A DNA stretch of 64,000 nt from Bacteroidota bacterium (GTDB lineage: Bacteria; Bacteroidota; Bacteroidia; Flavobacteriales_D; Sanyastnellaceae). The position numbers and the translations under genes are program-made. The stretch covers positions 35,955-99,954 of the forward strand of contig JAQBVN010000001.1 in assembly GCA_027622975.1 (NCBI GenBank), written 5' to 3'. This document shows, in pieces, positions 6,933-37,344 of this stretch (positions are counted from its first letter, which is position 1; each line of letters begins with the position of its first letter). The notes under the pieces were generated by a model that was not told where the DNA came from, made no database searches, and saw only the letters and a program-made list of their open reading frames with translations.

Positions 6933-8096
6933 TCAATACCGGGCCAGCGACGGATCGATGTGTTCTTGCCAGGCGAGGATCCCGCCTGTGAGGTTCACCA
7001 AGTTGGTGTAACCGTGTACATCTTCGAGTTGCCGAATTGCCTTGGCACTGCGAGCGCCCGACCGGCACTGCACCACGACGGGCACATCCTTGGGAATGCG
7101 CGTGGTGCTTTCGAGCACCGTGGCCAGAGGGATGAGGTCTCCACCCATTTCTGCGATGCCAAATTCATAGGGCTCTCGAACGTCAATCAGGACATGCTCC
7201 TTGCCGCTCTCCCGCCATGAGTGAAGTTCATGGACATCGATGGCCTCAACTTCCCGTTCTTGGGAGGCAGGCACCCCAATTCCACAAAACTGGTCGTAGT
7301 CGATGAGTTGGGTTTGGGTTGGATTCTCCCCATTGAGTGGGTTGCGAGGGTCTTTGCGAACCTTCATGGTGCGCGTGGTGAATCCCGTGGCGTCAAAGAG
7401 GAACAAGCGTCCGCTGAGCGTGTCACCCACGCCGGTGATCACCTTGATCACTTCAAGGGCCTGGAGTGAGCCGAGGATTCCTGGCAACACACCAATCACT
7501 CCTCCTTCCGCGCAGCTGGGCACGAGGCCAGGGGGGGGCGGGGATGGGAAAAGGTCGCGGTAATTGGGGCCACGCGTGCCATCTGAAAGGAGTTCATTGA
7601 ACACGGAAGCTTGTCCCTCGAAGCGGTAAATGCTTGCATACACGTTCACCTTTCCTTCAAGGACGCAGGCATCATTGACCAAGTACCGCGTCGGAAAATT
7701 GTCCGTTCCGTCCGCGACCACGTCGTATTGCCTCACCAAATCTCTTGCGTTGGCGCTTGTGAATTTGGTGTTGTGAACGTCAATGGTGATGTGGGGATTG
7801 AGAGAAGCCAAGCGCTCTTTGGCAGCCATGGCTTTTGATTTCCCCACGGATTGAATCCCAAACAACACCTGACGCTGGAGGTTGCTGGCATCGACCGTAT
7901 CGAAATCCACCACCCCGATTCTGCCGACCCCGGCGGCTGCGAGGTACAAGAGGAGCGGAGATCCCAATCCCCCTGAACCAATGACCAACACGCTGGCGGC
8001 CTTGAGTTTGCGCTGTCCCTCGATGTTGAATTCAGGGATGATCAGGTGCCGGCTGTAACGTTCCAGCTCTTCTTTGCTGAATTGAATTTGTTCCAT
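6933..8096 (-). CDS. moeZ: MoeB/ThiF-family E1-like adenylyltransferase fused to a C-terminal rhodanese domain (MoeZ-type sulfur-carrier activating enzyme)
   Basis: RYSRHLIIPEF...VIGSGGLGSP nucleotide-binding fold and a C-terminal rhodanese with active-site CRSGARS. Last gene of the cysM-mec-cysO cluster. Confidence 0.88.
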   Translation of the reverse strand: MEQIQFSKEELERYSRHLIIPEFNIEGQRKLKAASVLVIGSGGLGSPLLLYLAAAGVGRIGVVDFDTVDASNLQRQVLFGIQSVGKSKAMAAKERLASLNPHITIDVHNTKFTSANARDLVRQYDVVADGTDNFPTRYLVNDACVLEGKVNVYASIYRFEGQASVFNELLSDGTRGPNYRDLFPSPPPPGLVPSCAEGGVIGVLPGILGSLQALEVIKVITGVGDTLSGRLFLFDATGFTTRTMKVRKDPRNPLNGENPTQTQLIDYDQFCGIGVPASQEREVEAIDVHELHSWRESGKEHVLIDVREPYEFGIAEMGGDLIPLATVLESTTRIPKDVPVVVQCRSGARSAKAIRQLEDVHGYTNLVNLTGGILAWQEHIDPSLARY

Positions 8097-8116: not shown

Positions 8117-8392
8117 TTATGCTCCTCCTGCAATGGCTGGGATGATGCTCACCTCGTCGTTGGGTTGGAGTGCAGTGTCTTCGCCGTCAAGGGCATGAAT
8201 GTCTTCGTCGCCTACGTACACGCGAATGAAGCTGCGAAGGCTGCCGGAATCTTCAAACAGGTGGGGTTTGAGTCCTGGATGTTGAGAGGCCAAGGCGTGA
8301 AGCAGCTCTTTCACAGATGTTGCTTCCTGGGTAAAAATGCCTTGTCCATCAGTGAATTTCCGCAATGGGGTAGGGATGATTAATTGGGCCAT
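8117..8392 (-). CDS. cysO: MoaD/ThiS-fold sulfur-carrier protein (CysO-like), C-terminus ...AIAGG-A
   Basis: 91 aa of beta-grasp size. I read the C-terminal codons as GCC ATT GCA GGA GGA GCA TAA. Sits between the JAMM protease and E1 genes. Confidence 0.8.
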   Translation of the reverse strand: MAQLIIPTPLRKFTDGQGIFTQEATSVKELLHALASQHPGLKPHLFEDSGSLRSFIRVYVGDEDIHALDGEDTALQPNDEVSIIPAIAGGA

Positions 8393-8434: not shown

Positions 8435-8884
8435 TCAAGTGGTGCGCCATGTCGTGGGCATGGAGACGATGTGTTCTTCAGCAAACTGGCGATCGGCATC
8501 GAGCTGCCAACTGCGTACATGCGAGGTTCCTTCTGGCTCAACGCTTACGATGATGTAACTGAAGAAGGGGAGGGCCACGGCGAGGTCATGCTCGCTTGGA
8601 ATGGCAGGGTGCAGCGGATGGCTGTGGTATACCCCGAGCAAGGTGAGGCCCTCTCGCGCAGCATGGCGTTCAGCCTGCAAATAGTCTTTGTCGGAAATGG
8701 CAAACCGGCGGCGCTGGTCTCCTTCTTTGCTGTTGGTGACCTGCGTCGAAAGGGTAACCTGCCGAATACCCCCTGATTCGTCACCATAAAAGAACCCGCA
8801 GCATTCGTTGGGAAAAGCCGCCTCAGCATGGTCAGTCATGGCCTTCAGGGCTTTGTGGTCGATGTCAAGTGGGAGAAAACTCAT
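8435..8884 (-). CDS. mec: JAMM/MPN+ (Mov34) metalloprotease, Mec-like
   Basis: JAMM motif GVYHSHPLHPAIPSEHD (HxHx7Sx2D) plus the upstream Glu (NECCGFF). Its start overlaps the cysM stop (ATGA). Confidence 0.85.
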   Translation of the reverse strand: MSFLPLDIDHKALKAMTDHAEAAFPNECCGFFYGDESGGIRQVTLSTQVTNSKEGDQRRRFAISDKDYLQAERHAAREGLTLLGVYHSHPLHPAIPSEHDLAVALPFFSYIIVSVEPEGTSHVRSWQLDADRQFAEEHIVSMPTTWRTT

Positions 8885-9810
8885 GGCAGGATGCGTTCGA
8901 CAACTTCACTGTACTTCGTGGCATCATCAGCCAACACGGTGACGATCACCCCCTCTTCCAATTCGTGTGCGAGTTCAACGGCTCCGGCCAGATTGGCTGC
9001 CGATGAAGGGCTGAGCAAGAGACCTTCTTCCTTGGCCGCCCGGCGAAGCATGGTGTAGCTCGCCTCGGTGGTGACCAAACGCGTCTCATCTGGCACCGTG
9101 GCGTCAAAGATTTTTGGCACACGCGCTGTTTCGAGGTGCTTCCATCCTTCAAGGCCGTGCAAGGCCGTTTCCGGCTGCAAAGCCACAAGTTGGATGTCTT
9201 GGTTGAATTCCTTGAGTCGACGCCCCGTTCCTGTGAACGTTCCCGTGGTGCCCAATCCAGCCACGAAGTGTGTGATGCGGTGGTGGGTTTCTTCCCAAAG
9301 TTCTACACCTGTGTGATGGTAATGTGCCATCCAGTTGGCATCGTTGCTGTATTGGTCGACGTAATGGTAGGTGTCAGGATGGGACTGTGCCAGCTCCCGG
9401 GCCACATCCTGGGAACCATCTGTGCTTTCGAACGGGCTTGTCAAGATGAGCTCCACACCCAGTGATTTCAAAATGTGCTTCCGTTCTTTTGAAGCGTTTT
9501 CTGGAATGCACAGCGTGACGGGAATGCCTGCCGCGGCAGCAAAAACAGCGTAAGCGATGCCGGTGTTTCCGGAGGAGGCATCCAACAGTCGACGTCCGCG
9601 AAGGGCCCCAGAGGCGACTGCATTTCGCAGGATGTTGAAGGCCGGACGCGCCTTGACACTCCCCCCAAATTGCTGCCATTCGAGTTTGGCATAAATCTCC
9701 ACACCGGGCTTGGGACTCAGGTGAAGCATGGGGTGCAATGGGGTGTGCCCGACATGCCAGCGGAGCTCGTCGAGGGTTGTCAATCTTGGGTCGATGAATG
9801 GAGTCGTCAT
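8881..9810 (-). CDS. cysM: PLP-dependent cysteine synthase (CysM-like, predicted to use a thiocarboxylated carrier)
   Basis: Fold-type II PLP enzyme with GGSVKARPA lysine motif and SSGNTGIAYA. First gene of the four-gene operon. Confidence 0.88.
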   Translation of the reverse strand: MTTPFIDPRLTTLDELRWHVGHTPLHPMLHLSPKPGVEIYAKLEWQQFGGSVKARPAFNILRNAVASGALRGRRLLDASSGNTGIAYAVFAAAAGIPVTLCIPENASKERKHILKSLGVELILTSPFESTDGSQDVARELAQSHPDTYHYVDQYSNDANWMAHYHHTGVELWEETHHRITHFVAGLGTTGTFTGTGRRLKEFNQDIQLVALQPETALHGLEGWKHLETARVPKIFDATVPDETRLVTTEASYTMLRRAAKEEGLLLSPSSAANLAGAVELAHELEEGVIVTVLADDATKYSEVVERILP

Positions 9811-9824
9811 CTTGGGTTTGGGTC

Positions 9825-9861
9825 AAAAAAAAGAAGCCCCCGTTACGAACGAGGGCTTCTT
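9825..9861 (-). terminator. strong intrinsic terminator 14 nt upstream of the cysM ATG (attenuator expression platform; also the only terminator after rodA)
   Basis: Minus strand reads AAGAAGCCCTCG / TTCGTAA / CGGGGGCTTCTT followed by TTTTTT. This is a 12-bp stem (one G-U), a 7-nt loop and a U-tract. Confidence 0.85.
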
Positions 9862-9884
9862 GAGGTTACGTGATTTTTGAGTGA

Positions 9885-9962
9885 TCATCCACGCATGCGC
9901 AAGCGGCCCCTGTCTGTCAGACAGCAGCAGCAGCAACAACACATGTTCGTGGAGAATGTCAT
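9885..9962 (-). CDS. candidate leader peptide MTFSTNMCCCCCCCLTDRGRLRMRG (7 tandem Cys codons)
   Basis: Read by hand: ATG 9962..9960, then TGT TGT TGC TGC TGC TGC TGT at 9941..9921, then TGA 9887..9885. The -7 box lies 4 nt upstream of the ATG, and the terminator starts 23 nt after the stop. Confidence 0.6.
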   Translation of the reverse strand: MTFSTNMCCCCCCCLTDRGRLRMRG

Positions 9963-9966
9963 GTTG

Positions 9967-9998
9967 CAAAATTGGAACAAGACACCGTATAATCCAAA
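9967..9998 (-). promoter_or_regulatory. Bacteroidota-type promoter for the Cys leader: TTTG(-33)-N20-CAATTTTG(-7)-CAAC-ATG
   Basis: TTTG at 9998..9995 and CAATTTTG at 9974..9967, spaced 20 nt apart. This matches the TTTG-N19-21-TAnnTTTG consensus apart from the first base of the -7 box. Confidence 0.5.
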
Positions 9999-10027: not shown

Positions 10028-11347
10028 TTATCTCAGCACGGAAAACCGCTCGGCATCAAGTCGGAGCAGGATGCCAAACAACAATGTGAATCCCATGAGT
10101 GATGAGCCTCCATAACTGAAAAACGGCAGGGGAATGCCAATCACTGGTGCCAGTCCAAGAACCATCCCGATGTTGACCATGAAATGCATGAACATGATGC
10201 TCGCAACAGCATAGGCGTAGATCCTTGTGAATTGGGAACGTTGTCGTTCAGCGAGAACCAAGACCCGCAGAATCAAAAGCACAAACAGACCCACCACGAG
10301 TGCACTCCCAAGGAATCCCCACTCTTCGCCCACCGTGCAGAAAATGAAGTCCGTTTCCTGCTCTGGCACAAATCCATAGGCAGTCATGGGGCCTGAGGCC
10401 CAGCCTTTGCCCACCAGCCCACCGGACCCAATGGCCGCTTTGGCGTGGCGAATGTTGTAGTCGGCGTCTGGATTGTCCACGTCAATACCCAACAACACGT
10501 GGATGCGCTCCCGTTGATGGCGTTGAAGCACCTGCTCCATGCCCCAGTGGATACCTGCCGAAAAGGCCAGACCACCGACCAAAAGGGCTGTTCCCCATCG
10601 CCGAATCCGTTTTCGATTCCGCGGCAGGGTTGCCTCGTGAACCAACCACAAGACCAAGGTTCCTAGGCTGGCAAAGGCCATCAAAAACCACCAATACCCT
10701 GAAGCCTCACCAAGCCAAGGATAGTCACTTGTTCCAGCCCCAATCAACACTGTCAGCACGCCCACTACAAGCAATCCCACACCCACCAGCAACACGTTGC
10801 CGCTGAGGCCTTCTCGGTACAGGACAAACACAAATCCGCCAAAGACCAAAACCGTCCCGGCGTCTGGTTGAAGCAGAATCAATCCCGCGGGAAGACCCAA
10901 GATGATGAGTGATTGCAGCCGGGTGGCCAACGTGTGCCATGGCCTGCCATCCCTGCTCAAAAACCATGAAATCATAAGCGCCGTGGCGGTTTTGGCAAAT
11001 TCACTCGGTTGAATTCCGAAGCTGCCAACGCCAAACCACGATCGGGCGCCTCCCACCTTTTTGCCGACCACCAACACGGCCATCAGCAAGAGGAGAACCA
11101 ATACGTAGTGAATGACCGAGGTGCGGATGAAGAATTCTCCTTCAACGGCCAGCAAGCCCACGAGCAAAACGGCGCAAACGGCCATCCAAATCAATTGCTT
11201 TCCCGCCTTGCCAGTCAGGTCCCAAACCACCTCGGCTTCTGCAGTGGCGCTGACCACGTTCAACCATCCCAACATCACCAAGAGCAGGACCAATCCCAGG
11301 GTGGTCCAATCGAGCTGGGCAGTGAGTCGAAGGTTTCGTGCGCTCAT
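10028..11347 (-). CDS. rodA: rod shape-determining SEDS protein RodA
   Basis: FtsW/RodA/SpoVE family polytopic membrane protein directly downstream of mrdA. C-terminal GIPLPFFSYGGSS motif. Confidence 0.9.
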   Translation of the reverse strand: MSARNLRLTAQLDWTTLGLVLLLVMLGWLNVVSATAEAEVVWDLTGKAGKQLIWMAVCAVLLVGLLAVEGEFFIRTSVIHYVLVLLLLMAVLVVGKKVGGARSWFGVGSFGIQPSEFAKTATALMISWFLSRDGRPWHTLATRLQSLIILGLPAGLILLQPDAGTVLVFGGFVFVLYREGLSGNVLLVGVGLLVVGVLTVLIGAGTSDYPWLGEASGYWWFLMAFASLGTLVLWLVHEATLPRNRKRIRRWGTALLVGGLAFSAGIHWGMEQVLQRHQRERIHVLLGIDVDNPDADYNIRHAKAAIGSGGLVGKGWASGPMTAYGFVPEQETDFIFCTVGEEWGFLGSALVVGLFVLLILRVLVLAERQRSQFTRIYAYAVASIMFMHFMVNIGMVLGLAPVIGIPLPFFSYGGSSLMGFTLLFGILLRLDAERFSVLR

Positions 11348-33127: not shown

Positions 33128-33173
33128 GGGCTTCTGAAGGCATCCGCCGATGATTCCCGGCGAATCACATGCC

Positions 33174-34352
33174 TCAGTACAGAAAGTTGTTGTAGGGATA
33201 GCGCTTGATGTGAAGGTCCTTCACCGTAGCGTACAGCAGGGCGCGGAATTCTTCCAAGCCTTCCTTGGTCTTGGCAGACATGAAAAAGACATGTTGCCCC
33301 AAGGCTTCGTGGCGCTCGCGCAATCCCCGAATCAGATCCTCCCTGGATCGTTCTCCTTCGGGGTCTTTCAGGGCATCGATTTTGTTGAACAACAGCAACA
33401 CGGGCTTGCTGTCACTTCCGATGTCTGCCAAGGTGCGATCGACGACAGCCATGTGGTCTTCACATTGAGGATGGCTCACGTCGACGACGTGAATCAGCAG
33501 ATCGCTTTCACGCGTTTCATCCAAGGTGCTTTTGAAAGACTCGATGAGTTGGGTGGGCAGTTTGCGGATGAATCCTACGGTGTCGCTCAACAGGAATGGC
33601 AGGTTGTCGATGACCACTTTTCTGACCGTGGTGTCCAGCGTGGCAAACAGTTTGTTTTCCGCGAACACATCGCTTTTGGACAACAACGTCATCAGCGTGC
33701 TCTTCCCGACATTGGTGTATCCCACAAAAGCCACGCGGATCATTTCTCCGCGGTTTTTTCGCTGGGTAGCCATTTGTTTGTCAATTCCTTCGAGGTGCTT
33801 TCGAAGCAACGCGATGCGATCGCGAATCACGCGACGGTCTGTTTCAATCTCTTTTTCTCCAGGACCCTTCATACCGATTCCACCCTTTTGTTTTTGGAGG
33901 TGCGTCCACATGTTGGTCAAACGTGGCAGCAGGTACTGGTACTGCGCCAATTCGACCTGCGTCTTGGCATGGGCAGTGGCCGCACGTTGCGCAAAAATGT
34001 CCAAGATGAGGTGGGTCCGATCGAGGATTTTCCGCTCTGGAATTTCTTTCTCGATGTTCCTCAATTGGATGGGACTCAACTCGTCGTCAAACACCACCAT
34101 GTCGATGTTTTCTTCTTCGACGTATTCCTTGATCTCCTGGAGTTTTCCCGAACCAATGAAAGTGCGAACGTCAGGCTTGTCCAAAGTTTGGATGAAGACA
34201 TGCTTTGGCTCAGCCGAGGCTGTCTCGACCAAAAAGGCCAATTCGTCGAGGTACTCTTCGAGTTGTTCACGCCGTTGGTGGCGCGTGGCAAGGCCCACGA
34301 GAATGCACGTCTCCTGCGGTTTGGCGGTGGAAAGTGGTGTTCGTTTGGCCAT
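33174..34352 (-). CDS. hflX: GTPase HflX
   Basis: G1 GYTNVGKST, G3 DTVGF and G4 NKID motifs, with an HflX N-terminal domain. Confidence 0.95.
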   Translation of the reverse strand: MAKRTPLSTAKPQETCILVGLATRHQRREQLEEYLDELAFLVETASAEPKHVFIQTLDKPDVRTFIGSGKLQEIKEYVEEENIDMVVFDDELSPIQLRNIEKEIPERKILDRTHLILDIFAQRAATAHAKTQVELAQYQYLLPRLTNMWTHLQKQKGGIGMKGPGEKEIETDRRVIRDRIALLRKHLEGIDKQMATQRKNRGEMIRVAFVGYTNVGKSTLMTLLSKSDVFAENKLFATLDTTVRKVVIDNLPFLLSDTVGFIRKLPTQLIESFKSTLDETRESDLLIHVVDVSHPQCEDHMAVVDRTLADIGSDSKPVLLLFNKIDALKDPEGERSREDLIRGLRERHEALGQHVFFMSAKTKEGLEEFRALLYATVKDLHIKRYPYNNFLY

Positions 34353-34355
34353 GGC

Positions 34356-34688
34356 TCAATGTCGAAAAGTCTCGATGTAGTTCGCGATTCCTTGAATCGT
34401 GGCCGCGTCTAGCATGTCCTTGTGGGGAGGCATGGTTCCCTTGCCATAGGTGATGATGGCAATTCGTTCCTCCAAACCCAGGGTGCTTTCACGAAGGTCG
34501 CCAGCCGTCAGAAGCACGGGTTCACCTTGTTCGCCGTGACACATGGCGCACTTCATCATGTATTGGCGTTGGGCATCAGCCTTTCCAACTCCGGTGTGAG
34601 GGGCTGTAGAGGGTTGTGCCATGTCTCCGCAGGATGAACCCCACAGGACTGCCAACAAGAGCAGCCCTCCATTCCTGGCTTTCATCAA
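34356..34688 (-). CDS. class I c-type cytochrome (lipoprotein signal)
   Basis: Single CAMCHG heme-binding motif and an LLAVLWGSSCG lipobox-like signal. Confidence 0.8.
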   Translation of the reverse strand: MMKARNGGLLLLAVLWGSSCGDMAQPSTAPHTGVGKADAQRQYMMKCAMCHGEQGEPVLLTAGDLRESTLGLEERIAIITYGKGTMPPHKDMLDAATIQGIANYIETFRH

Positions 34689-36549: not shown

Positions 36550-37344
36550 TCAGAGGCAGGGGGTTCGACCTCCATCAACCGGCAAATTGATACCGGAGAT
36601 ATACCCAGCCGCTGGTGAACAAAGAAAAGCGATGGCGTAGCCGACTTCTTCGGCAGTTCCTACCCTTCCTGCCGGGACCTGGGCTGCCATGTTTGCCAGG
36701 ATGTTTTCCGGCGTGGTCCCTGCTGCGGACGCCTTGACTTCAGCCAAGTTGGTCAGTCGGGCTGTGAGGGTTGCTCCTGGCAGTACGTTGTTCACGGTGA
36801 TGCCGTGAGCTCCGACCTCATTGGCCCACGTTTTGGCCCAATTGGCCACGGCACCTCGGACCGTGTTGGACACTCCCAACCCATTCAAAGGCGCCTTGAC
36901 GGAAGTGCTGATGACATTGACAATCCGACCCCACTGGGCGCGTTTCATGCCTGGGAACACGCCTTGGGCCAAGATTTGGTTGTTGACCAGGTGCTGGCGA
37001 AATGTGTTTTCAAAAGCCTCCATCGAGGCCTCGGTGATGGGTCCTCCCGCGGGCCCACCGCTGTTGTTCACCAGCACGTGAATGTCTCCCGATGACAGGA
37101 CGAGGTCGAGGGCGCGCGTGACCTGATGTGGATCGTGAAAATCAGCCAGGACAAACGAGTGTCCAGAACCAGGGAGCGTTTGCAACGCATCTTGAAGTCG
37201 TTCTTCATTCCGTGCCATCAAGGTGACTTCGGCACCCAATGTGGCCAGTTGCTGGGCGGCGGCCAGTCCAATGCCTTGTGATGCCCCGCATACGAGGGCC
37301 CGACGACCTTCGAGTCCGAGCGGCATTCCCAAAATGTCCTTCAT
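36550..37344 (-). CDS. SDR-family oxidoreductase
   Basis: The glycine-rich cofactor-binding motif is present as VCGASQGIG; also NNSGG and a PG motif. 264 aa. Confidence 0.88.
   Translation of the reverse strand: MKDILGMPLGLEGRRALVCGASQGIGLAAAQQLATLGAEVTLMARNEERLQDALQTLPGSGHSFVLADFHDPHQVTRALDLVLSSGDIHVLVNNSGGPAGGPITEASMEAFENTFRQHLVNNQILAQGVFPGMKRAQWGRIVNVISTSVKAPLNGLGVSNTVRGAVANWAKTWANEVGAHGITVNNVLPGATLTARLTNLAEVKASAAGTTPENILANMAAQVPAGRVGTAEEVGYAIAFLCSPAAGYISGINLPVDGGRTPCL

Follow-up and report, generated by a model that had tools for sequence, protein, structure and literature searches.

A predicted cysteine-sensing leader-peptide attenuator with seven tandem cysteine codons in front of a cysM-mec-cysO-moeZ operon in Bacteroidota

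Leaderless short open reading frames (sORFs) with runs of cysteine codons (poly-Cys) were shown experimentally to be cysteine-responsive attenuators in M. smegmatis (Canestrari et al. 2020; 10.1101/834739). In the mycobacterial example that was dissected, an RNA duplex sequesters the downstream ribosome-binding site and no intrinsic terminator is present; the mycobacterial mec-cysO-cysM genes were not reported as carrying a poly-Cys leader (10.1101/834739). Leader peptides with Cys runs, without terminators, have been predicted upstream of actinobacterial cys operons (Seliverstov et al. 2005; PMC1262725). The uORFC-8-2 motif, found upstream of cysS in Rhodobacterales, consists of an upstream ORF (uORF) with two Cys codons and a terminator, and attenuation was predicted for it (Brewer et al. 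2021; PMC8632094). In Bacteroidota, leader-peptide attenuators for other amino acids were predicted before amino-acid biosynthesis operons in the transcriptome of F. psychrophilum (PMC9723704). The locus presented here lies in a stretch of 64,000 nucleotides (nt) from a Bacteroidota bacterium of the Sanyastnellaceae (contig JAQBVN010000001.1, positions 35,955 to 99,954), which is referred to as the window. Between rodA and cysM, on the minus strand, it contains an sORF with seven tandem Cys codons that is followed by an intrinsic terminator. The combination is best read, with a probability of roughly 0.8, as a ribosome-mediated leader-peptide transcription attenuator that would sense charged tRNA-Cys and control the operon cysM-mec-cysO-moeZ. 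The first-pass annotation of this DNA, in which the same mechanism was proposed, stated that no characterised Cys-codon attenuator was known to it; that statement is outdated, as the mycobacterial sORFs have been characterised (10.1101/834739) and others have been predicted (PMC1262725, PMC8632094).

The proposal itself found support in silico. The parts of the leader recur at constant distances from one another in about 86 loci, the Cys run is maintained as codons in the frame of the sORF, the terminator and the antiterminator covary, the alternative structures are mutually exclusive, and the geometry is compatible with a ribosome footprint in constrained folds. As judged from these comparisons, the feature of the window is a real and strongly conserved cis-regulatory element.

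The mini-ORF, its seven Cys codons, the terminator, the small hairpin and the complementarity between leader and terminator were all present where they had been placed, exact to the base (Table 1). Scanning of both strands showed that the 7-codon run is the sole run of at least five TGY triplets in the 64-kb window. The only other run of at least four such triplets, at 33389-33400 on the minus strand, was ruled out as a leader because it is coding sequence, located where two long ORFs overlap (plus strand, 33150..34412; minus strand, 33174..34352). The leader of 156 nt folds at -56.5 kcal/mol (z = -4.3), and none of 200 dinucleotide shuffles folded as well. Searches of Pfam and NCBIfam with five leader peptides gave no meaningful match. 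Scanning against Rfam 15 (E <= 10) returned no family at its gathering threshold and only sub-threshold matches to the terminator; the best scores, 18.8 bits for Phe_leader and 16.1 bits for Thr_leader (thresholds 55), were both obtained on the terminator alone.

The conservation of the leader was studied in 160 loci encoding CysM relatives, 80 of which came from contigs of one genome per species and 80 from metagenome contigs. Counts were made on the 151 loci with at least 200 nt upstream of the gene, and an sORF in the last 450 nt before cysM was scored when it had an ATG start and at least three tandem Cys codons. A Cys-run sORF was present in 99 of the 151 loci, with runs of 3 to 8 codons (mode 6), so that the mini-ORF does recur upstream of orthologous operons, as the first-pass annotation expected of a real attenuator. 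In the genome set the carriers are nearly all Bacteroidota (Flavobacteriales, Saprospiraceae, Chitinophagaceae and families of the Cytophagales), Balneolales and Rhodothermales. No Cys run was found in the loci of Acidobacteriota, Armatimonadota, Cyanobacteriota and Rubrobacter (about 30 non-Bacteroidota loci), with the exception of the acidobacterial locus L078. The density of runs with at least four TGY triplets is 2.1 per kb over the 400 nt that precede cysM and 0.007 per kb in the remainder of these loci, both strands counted, which amounts to an enrichment of about 300-fold.

Several properties of the runs indicate that they are read as codons. An ATG in frame with the run, at most 30 codons away and without an intervening stop, was found for 89 of 94 runs, as opposed to 7 and 28 for the other two frames. 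The distance from the ATG to the run has a sharp peak at 7-9 codons. TGT and TGC are interchanged in the runs of the relatives (388:131), and the length of the run varies by whole codons. The distance from the end of the run to the stop of the sORF has a median of 12 codons (interquartile range (IQR) 11-13). A hairpin followed by at least four T residues was present after the sORF in 86 of the 99 loci, starting at a median of 30 nt (IQR 27-33) past the stop. The gene order cysM-mec-cysO-moeZ is conserved, while rodA/PBP2 is located upstream in only about 21 loci, all of the close clade: the leader travels with cysM and not with rodA. In one of the loci with rodA upstream (L110, about 2280-2460), an sORF with an interrupted Cys run (MSSIQACCWMCCTPDP...*) precedes the terminator, which means that the threshold of at least three tandem codons undercounts the family.

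The hairpin in front of cysM, which had been claimed to be a terminator with a 12-bp stem and a U-tract, is an intrinsic terminator. The scanner gave a stem of 14 bp (7 G-C) that includes a G+C-rich core of 12 bp, and the structure folds at -21.1 kcal/mol. Its stem begins 23 nt after the stop of the sORF, and its U-tract ends 14 nt before the ATG of cysM (9810). In alignment A2, which consists of the window and 18 close relatives (19 sequences), 97.4 % of the terminator positions are paired, and changes on both sides are seen in 7 of the 14 pairs. Neither the paired fraction nor the covariation score was equalled in any of 500 shuffles, and controls in which the position was slid were only 42-65 % paired.

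An antiterminator had been proposed on the basis of the complementarity between GGGGCCGCTTG (9910..9900) and CAAGAAGCCCT (9862..9852). The core of this pairing (GGGGC:GCCCU) was upheld, as it is paired in 15-19 of the 19 sequences of A2; its five pairs are kept in 19, 19, 19, 15 and 18 of them, and one core pair shows eight double substitutions from G-C to A-U. The true extent of the structure is larger than was proposed, reaching from 9914 to 9848 with an inner hairpin in which the stop codon is located. This antiterminator domain folds at -22.0 kcal/mol versus -21.1 kcal/mol for the terminator. The duplex of segment 2 with the extended arm of segment 3 has an energy of -14.9 kcal/mol (z = -2.3, p = 0.018, 1000 shuffles).

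A similar arrangement was observed throughout the family. In 40 attenuators, a stretch that typically lies 10-30 nt before the stop of the sORF is complementary to the 5' arm of the terminator, with a mean z of -2.4 against dinucleotide shuffles and p <= 0.05 in 22 of the 40 loci. When leaders and terminators were swapped between loci, the mismatched pairs reached a mean of -8.5 kcal/mol versus -11.8 kcal/mol for a leader with its own terminator. The letters that pair are specific for the lineage while the pairing is kept: GGAAAGGC/GCCTTTCC, GGTGGAG/CTCCAC, CGGTGAGG/CCTCACC, GGGAGGGC/GCCCTCC and GGAGGC/GCCTCY occur in relatives, and GGGGC/GCCCT in the window. Peptide motifs that recur at the C-terminus, such as RKGG and WVEDD, do so because they are the translation of segment 2.

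The small hairpin at 9910..9924, which was also part of the original proposal, has the core CTGTCTG-A-CAGACAG (9924..9910, minus strand) and was recovered as a consensus structure by RNAalifold in the 19 relatives. Apart from this hairpin between segments 1 and 2 (1:2), that program found only the terminator and one small internal helix in the leader. In the window, pairing of segment 2 with the region of the Cys run amounts to -14.0 kcal/mol (p = 0.03 against shuffles). The 1:2 and 2:3 pairings exclude each other because both make use of GGGGC.

Constrained folds, in which a ribosome footprint of 30 nt was held unpaired on the leader of the window, were used to compare the two outcomes. When any of Cys codons 1-6 was placed in the A-site, RNA made as far as the terminator loop folded into the 9914..9848 antiterminator (-22 to -25 kcal/mol). 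A footprint over the stop codon blocked this structure, and the terminator formed instead.

The start of the transcript can be placed with the aid of the promoter-like elements upstream of the sORF. On the minus strand these read TTTG (9998..9995), N20, CAATTTTG (9974..9967), CAAC and ATG, as had been described, and both the -33 and the -7 element are conserved in the close clade. In the -7-like box of the 19 relatives, the A and the TT are invariant and the G is nearly so; the ATG is also invariant and always follows at 4-7 nt. The promoter consensus of Bacteroidota is TTTG (-33) / TAnnTTTG (-7), and the 20-nt spacing in the window fits it. With the usual geometry of Bacteroidota promoters, transcription is expected to start 0-2 nt before the AUG of the sORF, and the mRNA would be leaderless or nearly so. 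If RNA synthesis does begin this close to the AUG, the leader peptide would be the first thing translated. In the wider family, TTTG is located 3-20 nt before the ATG in 33 % of the members versus 8 % of controls, from which it would seem that short 5' leaders are common, not universal. The claim that 11 genes of the window share the spacing between -7 box and ATG could not be reproduced in a crude count, which gave 9 of 56 putative genes versus about 6 by chance. Long ORFs with TTTG 4-7 nt before a candidate ATG are, for example, those at 37344(-), 55513(+), 56836(-), 43653(-), 39064(+) and 61419(+). Frequent leaderless mRNAs in the source organism are hinted at, not established, by 9 of 56 genes where about 6 are expected.

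Table 1 Positions of the leader elements and of the flanking genes in the window
Feature	Position	Strand	Basis
Leader sORF, 25 codons + stop, peptide MTFSTNMCCCCCCCLTDRGRLRMRG	9962 (ATG, 9962..9960) to 9885 (TGA, 9887..9885)	minus	Direct reading of bases
Sensing codons, 7 tandem Cys (TGT TGT TGC TGC TGC TGC TGT)	9921..9941	minus	Direct reading
Intrinsic terminator: 14-bp stem 9861..9831, 3-nt loop, U8 tract 9832..9825	9825..9861	minus	Terminator scan, fold
Segment 2, candidate antiterminator 5' strand, GAC A GGGGC CG CUUG	9900..9914	minus	Inside sORF, 13-29 nt before stop
Segment 3, terminator 5' arm, CAAG AA GCCCU C GUU	9848..9862	minus	Alternative partner of segment 2
1:2 hairpin (candidate anti-antiterminator), last Cys codons GCUGCUGUC with GACAGGGGC	9906..9928	minus	-11.9 kcal/mol
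-33-like element TTTG (putative function)	9995..9998 (TTTGG 9998..9994)	minus	Position conserved in most of the 19 aligned sequences
-7-like box CAATTTTG, 4 nt before sORF ATG	9967..9974	minus	Consensus nAnnTTTG in 19 close relatives
CysM/CysK-family pyridoxal-phosphate (PLP) cysteine synthase, 309 amino acids, first gene of the putatively regulated operon	8881..9810	minus	Pfam PALP 1e-62
JAB/MPN metalloprotease, Mec-like	8435..8884	minus	Pfam Prok-JAB 1.8e-24
ThiS/MoaD-like sulfur carrier, CysO-like	8117..8392	minus	Pfam ThiS 1.5e-14
ThiF-type adenylyltransferase + rhodanese, MoeZ-like	6933..8096	minus	Pfam ThiF 4.7e-77, Rhodanese 3.1e-10
rodA-type FtsW/RodA gene, upstream	10028..11347	minus	Pfam; PBP2 also upstream

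In the following scheme, the start of transcription, the translation of the sORF and the response to cysteine are deduced from sequence features. From the Bacteroidota-type promoter (9998..9995, 9974..9967), RNA synthesis would start at the AUG at 9962 or no more than about 2 nt from it. When cysteine is plentiful, the ribosome would pass the seven Cys codons and reach the UGA at 9887, and a ribosome that covers segment 2 (9914..9900) or stands at the stop would occlude the antiterminator strand. Behind the ribosome, segment 2 and the last Cys codons could form the 1:2 hairpin (9928..9906) again. Folding of the terminator (9861..9825) would follow, and RNA polymerase would stop 14 nt before cysM. 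When cysteinyl-tRNA is scarce, a ribosome that stalls on the early Cys codons would melt the 1:2 hairpin and set free segment 2, which would pair with the 5' terminator arm (9862..9848) immediately upon its synthesis. Formation of the terminator would be precluded in this way, and cysM-mec-cysO-moeZ would be transcribed.

Several results weigh against this attenuator model or restrict it. With the narrow 5' arm, the antiterminator of the window is not significant (z -0.9, p 0.15), and it becomes so only when the arm is extended with CAAG. The long 1:2 hairpin of the minimum free energy (MFE) fold (9955..9881) was rejected as a conserved feature, as it is 66.5 % paired in the alignment, no better than shuffles. 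A 1:2 anti-antiterminator common to the whole family was rejected as well (mean z -0.3), and this hairpin is specific for the clade of the window. As there is no general 1:2 hairpin, most members appear to work with three segments, the ribosome itself occluding segment 2. In the constrained folds, the full-length RNA with a stalled ribosome still favours the terminator at equilibrium, and the decision must therefore be kinetic, i.e., taken during transcription. The trp leader of E. coli likewise depends on co-transcriptional kinetics. The leaderless start is argued from spacing, and only 33 % of the family has a TTTG at 3-20 nt from the ATG. On the minus strand between the stop of rodA (10028) and 9861, no other terminator was found by the scan. 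The hairpin therefore probably also ends the rodA transcripts: transcription of mrdA-rodA probably continues into the Cys leader as far as the terminator of the attenuator. Some transcripts may thus enter the leader from upstream, in which case the hairpin may serve both operons and some of the leader RNAs may not be leaderless. Lastly, in relatives of the Balneolales type (see below) the Cys run is present and a terminator is not, so that the mechanism proposed for the window cannot hold for every member of the family.

Three other explanations of the locus were weighed. A poly-Cys sORF could act on translation as in mycobacteria, gating the access of ribosomes to the start of cysM or the stability of the mRNA, with the hairpin as a structural block. 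Ms5788A, the only poly-Cys sORF that was dissected experimentally, does act on translation, and such a mechanism may apply to the relatives of the Balneolales type, which have a Cys run before cysM without hairpin and U-tract, among them L009, L012, L015, L038, L103, L120 and L150. The hairpin of the window, on the other hand, is a textbook intrinsic terminator with a G+C-rich stem of 14 bp and a U8 tract, and 86 of the 99 family members have retained a T-run immediately behind the stem. It ends 23 nt before the cysM ATG, with the U-tract counted, and does not include the start codon. Moreover, since initiation in Bacteroidota generally is not led by a Shine-Dalgarno sequence, there is no ribosome-binding site to sequester. 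For the window, translational control is therefore considered improbable.

The absence of any other terminator after rodA would also fit a hairpin that is simply the terminator of the mrdA-rodA operon. The Cys mini-ORF would then be incidental, or it could encode a functional micro-peptide that binds metal, has a redox role or is the precursor of a modified peptide; the poly-Cys core is indeed conserved, and some C-terminal motifs recur (TIPxRKGG, VIWVEDDLL). Yet sORF and terminator precede cysM in at least 67 loci without rodA upstream, the copies that occur in tandem each have their own terminator, and the interval from rodA to the sORF contains a conserved promoter. Beyond the Cys run, peptide conservation does not extend from one family to another, the five peptides that were searched matched no Pfam or NCBIfam family, and the recurring motifs are encoded where the RNA pairs with the terminator arm and vary in step with that arm. 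A terminator of rodA with an incidental or peptide-coding mini-ORF is very improbable in view of these data. A still smaller likelihood was assigned to an RNA element that functions without translation, in which a ligand or protein would be recognised by the UGY repeat and the structure downstream of it, the ORF being a coincidence. The leader is highly structured (z -4.3) and many RNA cis-regulators are used by Bacteroidota, but the frame test (89 of 94 versus 7 and 28), the whole-codon steps in run length and the interchange of TGT and TGC favour translation. Neither a conserved structure resembling a ligand pocket, beyond the terminator and short helices, nor an Rfam family at threshold was found. 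Attenuation of transcription by a ribosome on the leader peptide remains the preferred reading of the window.

The genes on both sides of the leader, rodA and cysM, were confirmed by Pfam. The first protein of the operon has cysM as its top NCBIfam model (below the equivalog cut-off), and its best sequence matches in PDB are cysteine synthase B. As the Mec-like gene overlaps the stop of cysM by 4 nt, the two are probably co-transcribed. The MoeZ-like protein matches the NCBIfam models MoeB (6.6e-144) and MoeZ (1e-138), both below their cut-offs. The gene set corresponds to that of the CysM/CysO/Mec/MoeZ cysteine route of M. tuberculosis (PMC3227635), and the operon is taken to encode CysO-thiocarboxylate-dependent cysteine synthesis (cysM-mec-cysO-moeZ).

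A number of variants were observed in the family. Two poly-Cys leader ORFs in series, with no gene between them, precede cysM in some loci of Saprospiraceae and Cyclobacteriaceae (L003 2081-2400; L004 122-450; L005 2449-2750; L027 2636-2940; L040 2614-2920; L042 2601-2930; L153). Every copy comes with a terminator of its own, and antiterminator complementarity is likewise present in most of them (in L004, z -4.3 and -4.6). In the variant of the Balneolales type, a run of 6-8 Cys codons ends 0-2 codons before the stop (...CCCCCCS*, MSCCCCCCS*). It was found in L007 (about 2784), L009 (2786), L012 (842), L015 (2790), L038 (2777), L103, L120, L121, L139, L150 and L159. No hairpin with a T-run follows the sORF in these leaders, and the distance to the start of cysM is about 115-150 nt. 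A conserved hairpin, UUACCGG...CCGGUAAC, is located after the stop of the sORF in L007 and L009. The mechanism may be different in this group, being either Rho-dependent or translational.

Leaders were also seen at a greater distance from cysM and, in one case, in Acidobacteriota. A poly-Cys leader ORF (e.g., MNNQINFCCCCCCTPTWVR*) lies about 1.0-1.15 kb upstream of cysM in L105 (1338), L133 (1415), L014 (1798) and L157 (1436). The gene that follows the distal leader in L105 (1708-2376) and L133 (1580-2215) encodes a 1-Cys peroxiredoxin (AhpC-TSA + 1-cysPrx_C), and its position suggests that the same Cys sensor may also control a thiol peroxidase. In Acidobacteriota, L078 (2756-2900) has a leader with three Cys codons (MAMCCCRRTWDGSPAVAFVS*), a terminator of -25.5 kcal/mol and an antiterminator complementarity with z -4.0; this leader could be of independent origin or could have been acquired by horizontal transfer. 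No proximal Cys leader was found in the 300 nt upstream of cysM in the Bacteroidota loci L020, L032, L049, L106, L107, L109, L117 and L125. In all of these a coding region on the same strand directly precedes cysM, which is apparently part of a longer operon there, and any leader would consequently lie further upstream. In L108, too, cysM directly follows another ORF and a proximal Cys run is lacking.

Taken together, these leaders might constitute an independently evolved 'Cys ribulon' that spans the Bacteroidota, Balneolales and Rhodothermales, in which poly-Cys leaders, often at the 5' end of the mRNA, would read the charging of tRNA-Cys and gate the CysO-thiocarboxylate pathway. It would include elaborations that are not known from any family of amino-acid attenuators: tandem attenuators in series (Saprospiraceae/Cyclobacteriaceae), a terminator-less form with the run abutting the stop (Balneolales), and a 1-Cys peroxiredoxin target that would couple cysteine supply to the defence against oxidative stress. 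This wider view is put forward tentatively, its chances being slightly below even.

If the attenuator is real, cysteine joins the amino acids under classical leader-peptide attenuation with terminator and antiterminator, and a first regulatory model is obtained for the CysO-thiocarboxylate cysteine pathway outside Actinobacteria. At least two or three phyla would have evolved, separately from one another, ORFs that sense cysteine by a poly-Cys run, with a transcriptional output here and a translational one in mycobacteria. The operon is predicted to be up-regulated upon cysteine starvation in these marine and soil Bacteroidota. The approximately 100 natural variants, with their covarying antiterminators, tandem copies and terminator-less forms, provide a data set for the study of attenuator evolution. 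The unannotated, putatively functional sORF and its RNA element are candidates for inclusion in Rfam or in annotation pipelines.

Among known systems, the leader of the window resembles trpL, hisL, pheL, thrL, leuL, ivbL and ilvL in having a short ORF with tandem codons for the amino acid that is the end product and a terminator just before the first gene. The number of tandem codons in hisL is seven, as in the window. As in the enterobacterial attenuators, the antiterminator uses the 5' arm of the terminator, the position of the ribosome would decide between the structures, and in the clade of the window a 1:2 hairpin is present too. Unlike these attenuators, the leader of the window would sense cysteine; it occurs in Bacteroidota, has a -33/-7 promoter and no Shine-Dalgarno sequence, and its ORF probably starts at the 5' end of the mRNA or next to it. 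Segment 2 is located inside the ORF instead of after its stop, and there is no sequence homology.

The mycobacterial sORFs (Ms5788A, Rv2334A) share with the window an unannotated poly-Cys sORF (2-7 or more codons in mycobacteria) that precedes operons of cysteine metabolism and is first on the transcript, in the window putatively so. In mycobacteria, low cysteine leads to pausing of the ribosome and to de-repression, and leaderless initiation may apply to the window also. In contrast to the mycobacterial sORFs, the window has a canonical terminator with an antiterminator, and the cysM ATG lies outside this structure, 14 nt beyond its end. The two belong to different phyla, lack homology and are evidently of independent origin. 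With uORFC-8-2 the window has in common a uORF with tandem Cys codons within a stem that is followed by an intrinsic terminator, and attenuation by sensing of Cys-tRNA was proposed for that motif. It differs from the window in its two Cys codons, its cysteinyl-tRNA synthetase target, its occurrence in Alphaproteobacteria and its unrelated sequence and structure, and it is known as a prediction.

In the full-text literature that was searched, in which subscription journals are thinly covered and a prior mention is possible, no Cys leader was found described for Bacteroidota, B. thetaiotaomicron included. The leader-peptide attenuator Bacteroid-trp was reportedly predicted in Bacteroidota by Weinberg in 2010. 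Bacteroid-trp and the other leader-peptide attenuators predicted in Bacteroidota share with the leader of the window the proposed mode of action and the phylum, and they indicate that attenuation of this kind is used there before operons for amino-acid biosynthesis; they concern other amino acids, and no cysteine leader was reported among them in the papers searched. The leaders upstream of cysM are a family that was previously uncatalogued in Rfam 15, Pfam and NCBIfam, and they represent a new combination of amino acid and phylum, not a new principle.

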